Shown: piece after piece, positions 628-8,223 of the stretch
Layout: every line of letters starts with the position of its first letter
How positions within the stretch are numbered: the stretch's first letter is position 1
IMG/VR virus record: IMGVR_UViG_3300005841_000939
Direction: 5' to 3' (one strand)
Origin: a virus
Lineage: Duplodnaviria; Caudoviricetes
Length of the DNA stretch: 64,000 nt
Program-made: the position numbers and the translations under genes
Notes under the pieces: generated by a model
Seen by the model: only the letters and a program-made list of their open reading frames with translations
Database searches by the model: none
What the model was told of the DNA's origin: nothing

Positions 628-1047
628 CATATGGTGTGCTATGCTGGGCCAAAGTCTATTGAGGTATATTCTTGAGAAGTCGGGCATACAACCTTTTGCT
701 TATCAATTGCAACGCCCTCAAACCCACCGTTCCGTAAGATACTTGATGGGCAATTCTCATGTCGTCTGTTATATCAACTTACACAAGCTTTATTGGGTCG
801 GAAATCATGCATTGCTGCAATCAAAAACCCCTTGCTCCCTGTAACTGCTTGCGCAATTTATGGGTTCTTTCGATGTAAGCCAATATCGTCAACTCTATCC
901 TAGGGTTATAAGTCTGGACTGTTGCTATGCACTCCCTGATTGCTATTCAGTTCGCTGTGCTGCCAGAAACTCTTGAACCGTTTGCGCGACAGTTCTTCCC
1001 TTCGACACTCCTTAGATGATGCCTTGTTAAAGGCCACATCCCATATG
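628..1047 (-). ncRNA. Large structured RNA A (420 nt) framed by a 23S rRNA L11-binding-domain-like motif
   Basis: Terminal stem CATATGG/CCATATG; 5' GGATGTGGCCTTTAACAAGGCATCATCTAAGGAGTG and 3' ATAGCACA resemble 23S H43/H44; several GCAA-capped hairpins inside. Confidence 0.7.
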
Positions 1048-1052
1048 CAAAT

Positions 1053-1126
1053 TGGTTCCCCGTCTGAGAATTGAACTCAGGTCTCCAGCGTCACAAGCCG
1101 ATATACTGCCATTGTACGAACGAGGG
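1053..1126 (-). tRNA. tRNA-His(GUG), non-canonical acceptor end
   Basis: CGGC-TTGTGAC-GCTG; CCA; A73 and C1.A72 mismatch, genomic -1 base is T. Confidence 0.88.
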
Positions 1127-1207: not shown

Positions 1208-1282
1208 TGGTTCCCCATCCGAGAATCGAACTCGGGTCTCCGGTGCCACAAACCAGCGTACTAACCACTGTACGAATGAGAG
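1208..1282 (-). tRNA. tRNA-His(GUG), second copy, same non-canonical acceptor end
   Basis: CTGGT-TTGTGGC-ACCGG; CCA; A73 and C1.A72. Confidence 0.88.
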
Positions 1283-1599: not shown

Positions 1600-1945
1600 T
1601 TGTTTGAATGGTGTGTTATTACACCAAAGAACCGGTTTTCTTTACTCTTAATCAAACACGAATTATAAAAAGACACATTGAAAAAGTAATGTATTGTCTC
1701 TTTATAAAAGGAGAATAACTCCAAAGTTTCGTTCTTAAACATGTAGCTGACTCCGGTCAAAGAGTAGGATTATGAATCCTTGCGCGGTTTGTTCAGAAGA
1801 GGTTGCTAGCTAATCCCTTCGTCGTCATACTTTATTTACCTTTTTTATCAGGACCATATGACAATCATCGGGCAAGCACCTTGCTATTCAGCGAATTCAC
1901 TCTTTAAAAGATGGCTACTTCTAAGCCGACTTCCCATTCAAACAA
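1600..1945 (-). ncRNA. Large structured RNA B (346 nt) framed by a 23S rRNA L11-binding-domain-like motif
   Basis: Perfect 12-bp terminal stem TTGTTTGAATGG/CCATTCAAACAA; 5' GGAAGTCGGCTTAGAAGTAGCCATCTTTTAAAGAGTG and 3' TGTAATAACACA match the 23S 1051-1108 consensus, split by a ~290-nt insert. Confidence 0.8.
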
Positions 1946-1954
1946 AAAGAATTT

Positions 1955-2105
1955 CACGACAAAAGTGCCAAAGTAGACTCCTTGCGGATTAGCTGTGTCT
2001 ATCATTTCCACCATACTCCCAATTGGTGGGAGCACCGGGATTTAAACCACGGATGTACCTAAGTACGGCTACGGTTATATAATGTAAACTTTAACTGCAT
2101 TCGTG
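1955..2105 (-). ncRNA. Y RNA-like scaffold copy 1 with permuted type II tRNA-like domain
   Basis: CACGAATGC...TACAT...T arm, acceptor closed by ACCAATT loop, D arm...TTTTGTCGTG. Confidence 0.7.
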
Positions 2106-2110
2106 AAAAG

Positions 2111-2185
2111 TGGTGCGTCGTCTTGGAATCGAACCAAGTCCCGAGGATTAAAAGTCCCCTGCTCCACCATTTGAGCTTACAACGC
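2111..2185 (-). tRNA. tRNA-Lys(UUU)
   Basis: GGGGA-CTTTTAA-TCCTC; CCA. Confidence 0.95.
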
Positions 2186-8146: not shown

Positions 8147-8223
8147 AGGCCCGACTGTCAAGATTTGAACTTGAATTTTCCAGCCATGACGGCCGGACGT
8201 TCTTTGCATTGAACTACAATCAG
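8147..8223 (-). pseudogene. Degenerate tRNA-like element, paralog of 8055-8131
   Basis: Cloverleaf folds; loop CGTCATG; 3' end GCCT. Confidence 0.6.

Follow-up and report, generated by a model that had tools for sequence, protein, structure and literature searches.

A phage RNA family from tRNA gene arrays reproduces the fold of the 23S rRNA GTPase-associated centre around a variable insert

Results

A split GTPase-associated centre in a giant-phage tRNA array

We analysed a 64,000-nt stretch of viral DNA (hereafter the window), which is part of a 262.5-kb virus record, IMGVR_UViG_3300005841_000939, from rhizosphere metagenomes. The window contains 27 tRNA genes, all on the minus strand (Rfam 15). 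Within this giant-phage tRNA array, between tRNA-Lys and tRNA-His, a 346-nt non-coding element (the GAC-mimic element) occupies exactly 1945→1600 on the minus strand. Its upstream same-strand neighbour is tRNA-Lys(UUU) (2111..2185, minus), and the 150-nt stretch at 1955-2105 (minus) between this gene and the element is free of ORFs. The next same-strand gene downstream is a tRNA-His (1208..1282, minus), and a free-standing HNH endonuclease gene of 103 aa (1284-1595, plus; Pfam HNH, E 1.2e-5) runs antisense within the minus-strand array and abuts the element's 3' end. A promoter and terminator scan around the element yielded nothing convincing and nothing above shuffle expectation. In run searches, the sequencing runs containing the element sequence were rhizosphere-metagenome DNA runs only. 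Elsewhere in the window, a tRNA with anticodon UCA (8148-8223, minus), which ARAGORN calls tRNA-SeC, may be a UGA-reading suppressor, and a tRNA-Sec-like gene also lies at 6756-6842 of L010, a locus that bears the RNA family described below; a link with recoded stop codons is conceivable. A 560-aa protein of the structural region had no tblastn match in cultured phages, and Pfam was uninformative for it.

The element consists of a 12-bp stem enclosing two pieces that jointly match 23S rRNA nt 1055-1104, namely H43/H44 of the GTPase-associated centre (GAC). The 5' strand of this terminal, H42-like stem comprises the first 11 nt of the element (1935..1945, minus), which read UUGUUUGAAUG, and the exact complement forms the element's end as the 3' strand (1600..1610, minus); with G1055-C1104 included, 12/12 pairs are perfect Watson-Crick pairs. 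The 36-nt 5' half of the GAC, equivalent to 23S G1055-U1090 (1899..1934, minus), aligns without gaps and contains H43 with its 1067 loop, the 1082-1086 mini-hairpin and the 5' strand of the H44 base. It is followed, between U1090 and G1091, by a variable insert of 270 nt (1629..1898, minus), which is closed by helix P-ins (1898-1894 with 1633-1629, minus; pairs G-C, A-U, A-U, U-G and U-G). A UUUG linker (1625..1628, minus), a signature of the family that is absent from rRNA, leads from the insert helix to G1091. The 14-nt 3' half of the GAC, equivalent to G1091-C1104 (1611..1624, minus), comprises the top of H44 with the 1095 loop and the 3' strand of the H44 base. The equivalents of A1067 and A1095 lie at window positions 1922 and 1620, respectively. 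The initial annotation had described an insert of about 290 nt; the insert is present, and it measures 270 nt plus the UUUG linker.

Identity was counted against the real 23S rRNA of Salmonella LT2 (L170). The 5' piece was identical at 30/36 positions and the 3' piece at 11/14, giving 41/50 in total, and seven of the nine differences belong to compensatory sets. These sets change U-A in Salmonella 23S rRNA to A-U in the window at 1058/1080, A-U to U-A at 1090/1101, and C/C-G to U/U-A at 1072/1092/1099. The window thus carries U1072/U1092/A1099 in the latter triple, and its residues at 1071/1091/1100 are G/G/C. These counts bear out the earlier proposal of a rebuilt H43/H44 within a 12-bp stem, and the compensatory changes that it had named at 1092-1099 and 1090-1101 are real relative to Salmonella 23S rRNA and backed by covariation in the family.

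The folding stability of the element was compared with that of shuffled sequences. The whole element folds better than its shuffles (z -4.06), whereas the insert folded alone has no extra stability relative to mononucleotide shuffles (z -0.9). This qualifies the description of the insert as hairpin-rich; within it, comparative support exists for the closing helix only.

The split element belongs to a large phage family

We scanned IMG/VR with an exact pattern of the H43 half (scan 1) and obtained 58 loci. One of the 58 was a true 23S rRNA gene (L047, 2213 bits with the LSU model), and all others were split at the same place. A second scan of IMG/VR, using the 3' signature only (linker plus H44 half), returned at least 120 loci; among the matches listed, the 5' half was found upstream wherever enough sequence was present, and these loci carry variants of the H43 loop and of 1082-1086 that lie beyond the reach of the first pattern. 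At least 113 distinct canonical elements were parsed from the two independent IMG/VR patterns, and the split design occurs in more than 110 distinct viral contigs, plus cultured jumbo phages.

The hosts of these cultured phages are Pseudomonas, Xanthomonas, Erwinia, Serratia, Cronobacter, Pectobacterium, Yersinia, Vibrio, Aeromonas, Ralstonia and Paenibacillus. Against cultured phages, blastn with the whole element gave a match limited to the ~39-nt 5' core, in Aeromonas phage 4_4572 and Ralstonia phage RSP15, whose loci run in the order stem, H43 half, AAAGAGU, insert, UUUGG, H44 half, stem. Short-query blastn located the core in Pseudomonas phages pf16, Astolliot, Milchi and UNO-G1W1, in Xanthomonas phages XacN1, XbC2 and XaC1, in Paenibacillus phage Pd_22F and one Vibrio phage, and in the enterobacterial giants Serratia BF, the Erwinia pEa_SNUABM phages, Cronobacter GAP32, Pectobacterium CBB and Yersinia fHe-Yen9-04. 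The region is unannotated or labelled 'hypothetical protein' in every cultured-phage genome with the core. In bacterial and archaeal genome contigs, an 18-nt 3' pattern gave 120 matches, of which 39 were true members and 81 were chance matches that have neither a 5' half nor tRNAs nearby and are not family members. The 39 members, mostly on tRNA-rich MAG contigs with same-strand tRNAs, are probably phage or prophage DNA.

A covariance model (CM R1) was built from an alignment (A1) of 41 sequences from other phages, made with MAFFT and leaving the window out. CM R1 matched the window at 1775-1946 for the 5' half (48.3 bits, E 3.6e-14) and at 1599-1687 for the 3' half (22.8 bits, E 6.8e-6), as two separate matches and no single alignment because of the long insert. 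The match of the window to the GAC-mimic model lies far above what chance would produce.

A second, degenerate GAC-like element was observed at window 943-1053 (minus), directly downstream of a tRNA-His at 1053-1126 (CM R1 22.8 bits, E 6.7e-6). Its H43 stem and the CUAAGGAGU segment are still recognisable; its 1067 loop is replaced (UUUAACAA), its 1095 loop is deleted and a terminal stem is not evident. Either decay of a duplicate or divergence of a variant could account for it.

Six members (L070, L095, L107, L117, L143 and L144) have an extra hairpin or domain in the H43 3' strand near A1077, a second permissive insertion site besides that at 1090/1091. The flanks of L107, a 223-kb viral contig, still resemble real 23S H42 (GACAGCCAGG ... 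CACUGGCCGAG), which hints that the family may have originated by capture of host rRNA sequence.

Covariation reveals selection on the three-dimensional GAC fold

Base-pair types were counted in E. coli numbering, anchored on the two conserved pieces. Pair 1058-1080 occurred as UA (49), GC (29), AU (26) and CG (3) and was canonical in 98% of cases, compared with 43% after partner shuffling. Pair 1082-1086 (UA 80, CG 19, AU 10) was likewise canonical in 98% (shuffled 68%), and pairs 1064-1074 (CG 103, AU 8) and 1092-1099 (CG 76, UA 32, UG 5) were canonical in 100% (shuffled 85% and 81%, respectively). The eight core-adjacent pairs of the terminal stem used many pair types and were 79-100% canonical, with about 40% for most after partner shuffling; the sequence of this stem is unconstrained beyond 1054-1055. 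The non-canonical features of the rRNA were retained as well, with U1060 facing U/C1078, G/A1056 facing A1103 and G1093 facing A1098, and U1090-A1101 and G1089 are fixed in the family.

In A1, 92.2% of cells were paired, compared with 66.9% in shuffled alignments, and 0/500 shuffles reached the observed value. The covariation score was 0.662, against 0.179 for shuffled alignments and at most 0.199 in slid registers. Double changes were found at 19/24 pairs, including 10/10 pairs of helix 1, the terminal stem.

The tertiary contacts of the domain covary too. The triple 1072/1092/1099 was C/C/G in 76 elements, U/U/A in 32 and U/U/G in 5, with no mixed combination. In the rRNA GAC, a cis Watson-Crick/Hoogsteen contact between C1072 and C1092 together with a C1072-G1099 hydrogen bond forms a tertiary interaction between the H43 loop and H44, and the contact of G1071 with G1091-C1100 is another documented interaction of this kind (PMC2952862). 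The perfect covariation of 1072 with 1092-1099 therefore demonstrates selection on the three-dimensional GAC fold, beyond its hairpins.

We further inspected 81 elements that, among the matches listed, had been retrieved through the 3' pattern only and are unbiased for the 5' half. In this set, U1060 and A1085 were each present in 81/81 elements, and A1088 and G1071 each in 79/81; we take these four residues to build the GAC tertiary fold, as in L11-RNA crystal structures. Position 1067 was A in 58/81 and G in 21/81, and this relaxation argues against strict selection for the EF-G/thiostrepton contact of the 1067 loop. The 1095 loop reads GUA(A/G)(U/C)A in nearly all members; part of this conservation was imposed by the retrieval patterns. 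Fold-building residues, and not the exposed loops, are the most strongly conserved. These results show that a phage RNA family reproduces the secondary and tertiary fold of the GAC under strong purifying selection. The covariation across the family, tertiary triple included, upholds the initial annotation's view that the RNA stands alone within a tRNA operon as a structural mimic of H43/H44 (the L11/thiostrepton domain); the H43/H44 pairs covary among homologs, and a model built without the window finds both of its halves.

The insert is a helix-closed domain of variable length and content

Insert length ranged from 25 to 365 nt (median 159), the shortest insert being a plain 25-nt hairpin whose bearers retain the full GAC core. 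Insert sequences are unrelated between lineages, and blastn against cultured phages and comparison with the 129 family elements revealed no relative of the window's insert. The first nucleotide of the insert, directly after U1090, pairs with the nucleotide directly before UUU. Over 113 elements the first three P-ins pairs were 98/96/89% canonical (95.9% in A1), with G-C, A-U, U-A and C-G all used and other registers at background. This covariation defines the insert as a domain that a helix closes off; it forms part of a three-way junction, and UUU(G/A) connects it to G1091. The UUU(G/A)G linker was present in essentially all members retrieved by the 5' pattern alone.

Several modules recur in otherwise unrelated inserts. 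An exact or near-exact sarcin-ricin-loop (SRL) hairpin, (A/G)GUACG(A/G)GAGGA, was found in 9-10 of the 129 elements and in at least five unrelated insert types; its bearers are L063, L077, L085, L091 and L128, where it lies about 135-195 nt before the linker, and L102, L110, L123 and L141. These RNAs consequently carry both rRNA elements of the translational-GTPase binding site. Apart from this minority SRL, no rRNA similarity was detected inside the inserts, and a second copy of the 1095 hairpin was rejected (1/99 observed against 2 expected).

Another recurrent module consists of CACCCC, a small GNRA-type hairpin and then GGUAAGG, ~18 nt before the UUUG linker (for example in L001, L003, L005, L006, L021, L029, L044, L097, L111, L120 and L150). 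GGUAAGG occurred in 16/99 non-redundant inserts compared with 1.5 expected, and inclusion of the looser GGUA(A/G) at that position raises the share to roughly a quarter. This module may be a tertiary-contact motif. In addition, CCCUUAGAG adjoins the closing helix in about 10% of inserts. The window's own insert contains no clear copy of the SRL, GGUAAGG or CCCUUAGAG modules, and neither an SRL-like nor an H44-like hairpin; window 1642-1648 reads AGUAAAG at the position of GGUAAGG.

The elements travel with tRNA genes

The elements nearly always sit in tRNA arrays of matching orientation. Across the family loci, 761 tRNAs lay on the same strand as the element and 3 on the opposite strand. A same-strand tRNA was located within 1 kb of 76/129 elements. 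Where a same-strand tRNA is present, about 40% of elements have it no more than 40 nt from the core. Such tight packing is expected of a stable RNA cut from a tRNA precursor, from which it would be released in the manner of RNase P/Z. No consistently conserved neighbouring protein gene was found at the family loci; the commonest were TerD (14 loci) and HNH (10 loci), and a subset had P-type ATPase neighbours. The HNH genes near family members are probably mobile homing endonucleases. A search of the phage for an encoded L11, L12 or RelA/SpoT homologue that might point to a partner found none.

Comparison with known RNA classes

We searched Rfam 15 over the whole window at gathering thresholds, over 1200-2700 at E<=10, and on six other family members. 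The results were tRNAs only in the whole window and in the six members, with no LSU rRNA, intron, GOLLD or ROOL match in 1200-2700. On this basis LSU rRNA, group I/II introns, GOLLD, ROOL, HEARO and r-protein leaders were rejected. No Rfam 15 family matches the element, full-length or otherwise, and the statement in the initial annotation that no other rRNA sequence is nearby proved accurate. For an LSU rRNA gene or fragment in particular, there was no match at gathering or at E<=10, and the true 23S L047 served as the control.

Self-splicing, which had been considered possible, is excluded. As in group I introns of rRNA genes, the insert interrupts a conserved rRNA helix and its boundaries can be read as U...G. 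Unlike them, the GAC-mimic RNA has no intron core: no group I or group II match was obtained at E<=10, and family inserts can be as short as 25 nt, whereas a group I intron (RF00028) has a conserved catalytic core (P3-P9) and a size of ~200 nt or more. The insert is instead a length-variable domain with a covarying closing helix and a conserved, non-rRNA UUUG linker, which would be missing from a spliced product.

Phages often encode the large structured RNAs GOLLD and ROOL close to tRNA genes, and the element is likewise a large structured RNA in such a setting. Its architecture is unrelated to GOLLD (RF01998) and ROOL (RF03087), however, and its core is recognisably rRNA; neither model matched the window or six other members, which removes the suggestion of a divergent GOLLD/ROOL RNA.

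Autoregulatory mRNA leaders of r-proteins mimic rRNA sites, as in the L10 leader (RF00557) and the L1-binding leader of the L11 operon. In both cases another RNA mimics the rRNA binding site of an r-protein, but the leaders are cis-acting, cellular and limited to a local motif, whereas the GAC-mimic RNA is free-standing and comprises a whole domain with its tertiary contacts. The neighbours of the element are tRNAs and the antisense HNH gene, no r-protein gene lies downstream and no Rfam leader model matched, so that a leader was rejected.

The closest known object is the rRNA domain itself, and the closest principle is rRNA mimicry by r-protein mRNA leaders. Compared with the GAC of 23S rRNA (H42-H44, E. 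coli nt 1051-1108, the 58-nt uL11/thiostrepton-binding domain), the phage RNA has an identical secondary structure, keeps the 1067 and 1095 loops, and retains U1060/U1078, G1056/A1103, G1093/A1098 and the triples of 1072 with 1092-1099 and of G1071 with G1091-C1100. It differs in lying outside any rRNA gene, in tRNA arrays, in the generic stem that replaces H42, and in the three-way junction with a 25-365-nt domain and UUUG linker at 1090/1091. This stem bears on the L10 binding that had also been proposed. L10 needs helix 42 'almost completely' (PMC1635324). In the phage RNA the conserved H42 core below the three-way junction is absent and the stem is a plain, freely varying helix, which makes binding of uL10 (the stalk protein) doubtful. 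The pseudo-ToxI antitoxin mimic is a phage-encoded decoy that likewise copies a host RNA and thereby neutralises a host protein, as the GAC-mimic RNA may do, with a different target and structure (PMC3475682). We found no description of an RNA such as the GAC-mimic in the open-access literature, a scope outside which most subscription journals fall, and the family is apparently undescribed so far.

Discussion

We infer that window 1945-1600 encodes a stable ncRNA of a large phage family, for which the name 'GAC-mimic RNA' is suitable. Its most likely role would be that of a stable stalk-base decoy that binds uL11 and/or GAC-directed factors or toxins; for the more specific claim that it is a uL11-binding decoy of the ribosomal stalk base, we put the chances at about even. 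The RNA would be transcribed together with the tRNA array, released by tRNA-processing nucleases and accumulate as a free copy of the stalk base. It would then bind host uL11, to our knowledge the sole protein known to recognise the GAC fold alone with high affinity, and the free RNP or RNA would compete with ribosomes for stalk-base ligands as a decoy or sponge, altering the sensing or attack of the infected cell's translation apparatus. uL11 is involved in RelA activation, and candidate routes are uL11-dependent RelA activation and GAC-directed factors or toxins. Candidate ligands would be uL11, GAC-directed toxins and translational GTPases, the last suggested by the SRL-bearing members. Several points weaken the decoy reading. 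To be effective, a decoy would need to be about as plentiful as its target; A1067 is relaxed in the family; no convincing promoter or terminator flanks the element; and neither an L11, L12 or RelA/SpoT homologue in the phage nor a conserved neighbour gene points to a partner.

The partner could also be something other than uL11. The RNA might serve as a decoy substrate, presenting surplus H43/H44 loops to an enzyme with which a defence or competitor system inactivates ribosomes at the GAC (for instance an ADP-ribosyltransferase, nuclease or methyltransferase), so that the ribosomes would be spared. We consider this unlikely. We know of no anti-phage system that targets the GAC, and the family conserves its fold-building residues most, not the exposed loops, with A1067 varying. 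The SRL, on the other hand, is a classic toxin target and some members add an SRL hairpin, and a hypervariable 'cargo' insert fits an arms race. Tre23 ADP-ribosylates H44 nt 1095-1098, and GAC-directed toxins thus exist (PMC8661411). The 1095 loop hit by this toxin is well conserved, as GUA(A/G)(U/C)A in nearly all members, although the retrieval patterns forced part of this conservation.

Improbable in our estimation is a factor sponge, or 'ribosome in pieces': alone or together with uL11, the RNA would capture a translational GTPase or a sensor of the RelA type off the ribosome, thereby modulating elongation, termination or the stringent response. The factor-binding site has two rRNA elements, the GAC and the SRL, which co-occur in 9-10 members, and Munishkin and Wool are said to have found in 1997 that isolated GAC and SRL oligoribonucleotides bind EF-G in vitro. 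Yet most members, the window included, are without the SRL, and A1067, which is a key contact for factors, is replaced by G in roughly one member in four. Moreover, factors bind isolated rRNA pieces weakly, and RelA requires a whole ribosome with deacylated tRNA.

We give just as little credence to the idea that the GAC fold is a structural handle, that is, a compact, nuclease-resistant and perhaps protein-capped scaffold on which the phage-specific variable insert is the functional part. Inserts of 25-365 nt with unrelated sequences would be consistent with this, as would the recurrent modules within them (the SRL, GGUAAGG ~18 nt before the linker, and CCCUUAGAG). It leaves unexplained, however, why the exposed 1067 and 1095 loops are nearly identical to rRNA; minimal members with a 25-nt hairpin insert keep the full GAC core, and the window's insert alone is no stabler than shuffles. 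Finally, a functionless, captured or decaying piece of host 23S rRNA interrupted by a self-splicing intron or intervening sequence is already contradicted by the data and has next to no probability, for although the 5' piece can be read as ending in U and the insert in G, and the rRNA-like H42 flanks of L107 suggest an origin by capture, there is no LSU, group I or group II match, some inserts measure no more than 25 nt, both the UUUG linker and the helix that closes the insert are conserved, and strong purifying selection with compensatory changes acts in more than 110 phages of many host phyla.

The SRL-bearing members suggest that what the family copies is the entire translational-GTPase binding site. 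More tentatively, with the odds somewhat against it, large phages of many host phyla may deploy a modular, free-standing replica of the ribosomal factor-binding site (GAC always, SRL sometimes) that intercepts a host response aimed at the ribosome, for example uL11-dependent stringent signalling or an undiscovered defence that attacks the GTPase centre. If this replica reading is true, these RNAs would form a new class among viral RNA counter-measures and, among natural RNAs, the first 'ribosome in pieces'.

No counterpart has been described for a free-standing RNA that reproduces an entire functional domain of rRNA, including its tertiary base triples. The RNA is common among jumbo phages and phages rich in tRNA genes, some of which are easily grown, and the proposals made here are therefore directly testable. 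For RNA structural biology and engineering, the family would supply natural, highly diversified GAC variants and a permissive insertion site at 1090/1091. Phage tRNA arrays are full of unannotated RNAs, and a function for the GAC-mimic RNA would account for one of them. Binding of uL11 or of GAC-directed proteins would represent a new viral way to manipulate or protect translation, and the GAC-mimic RNA could point to undiscovered host defences aimed at the GTPase centre.
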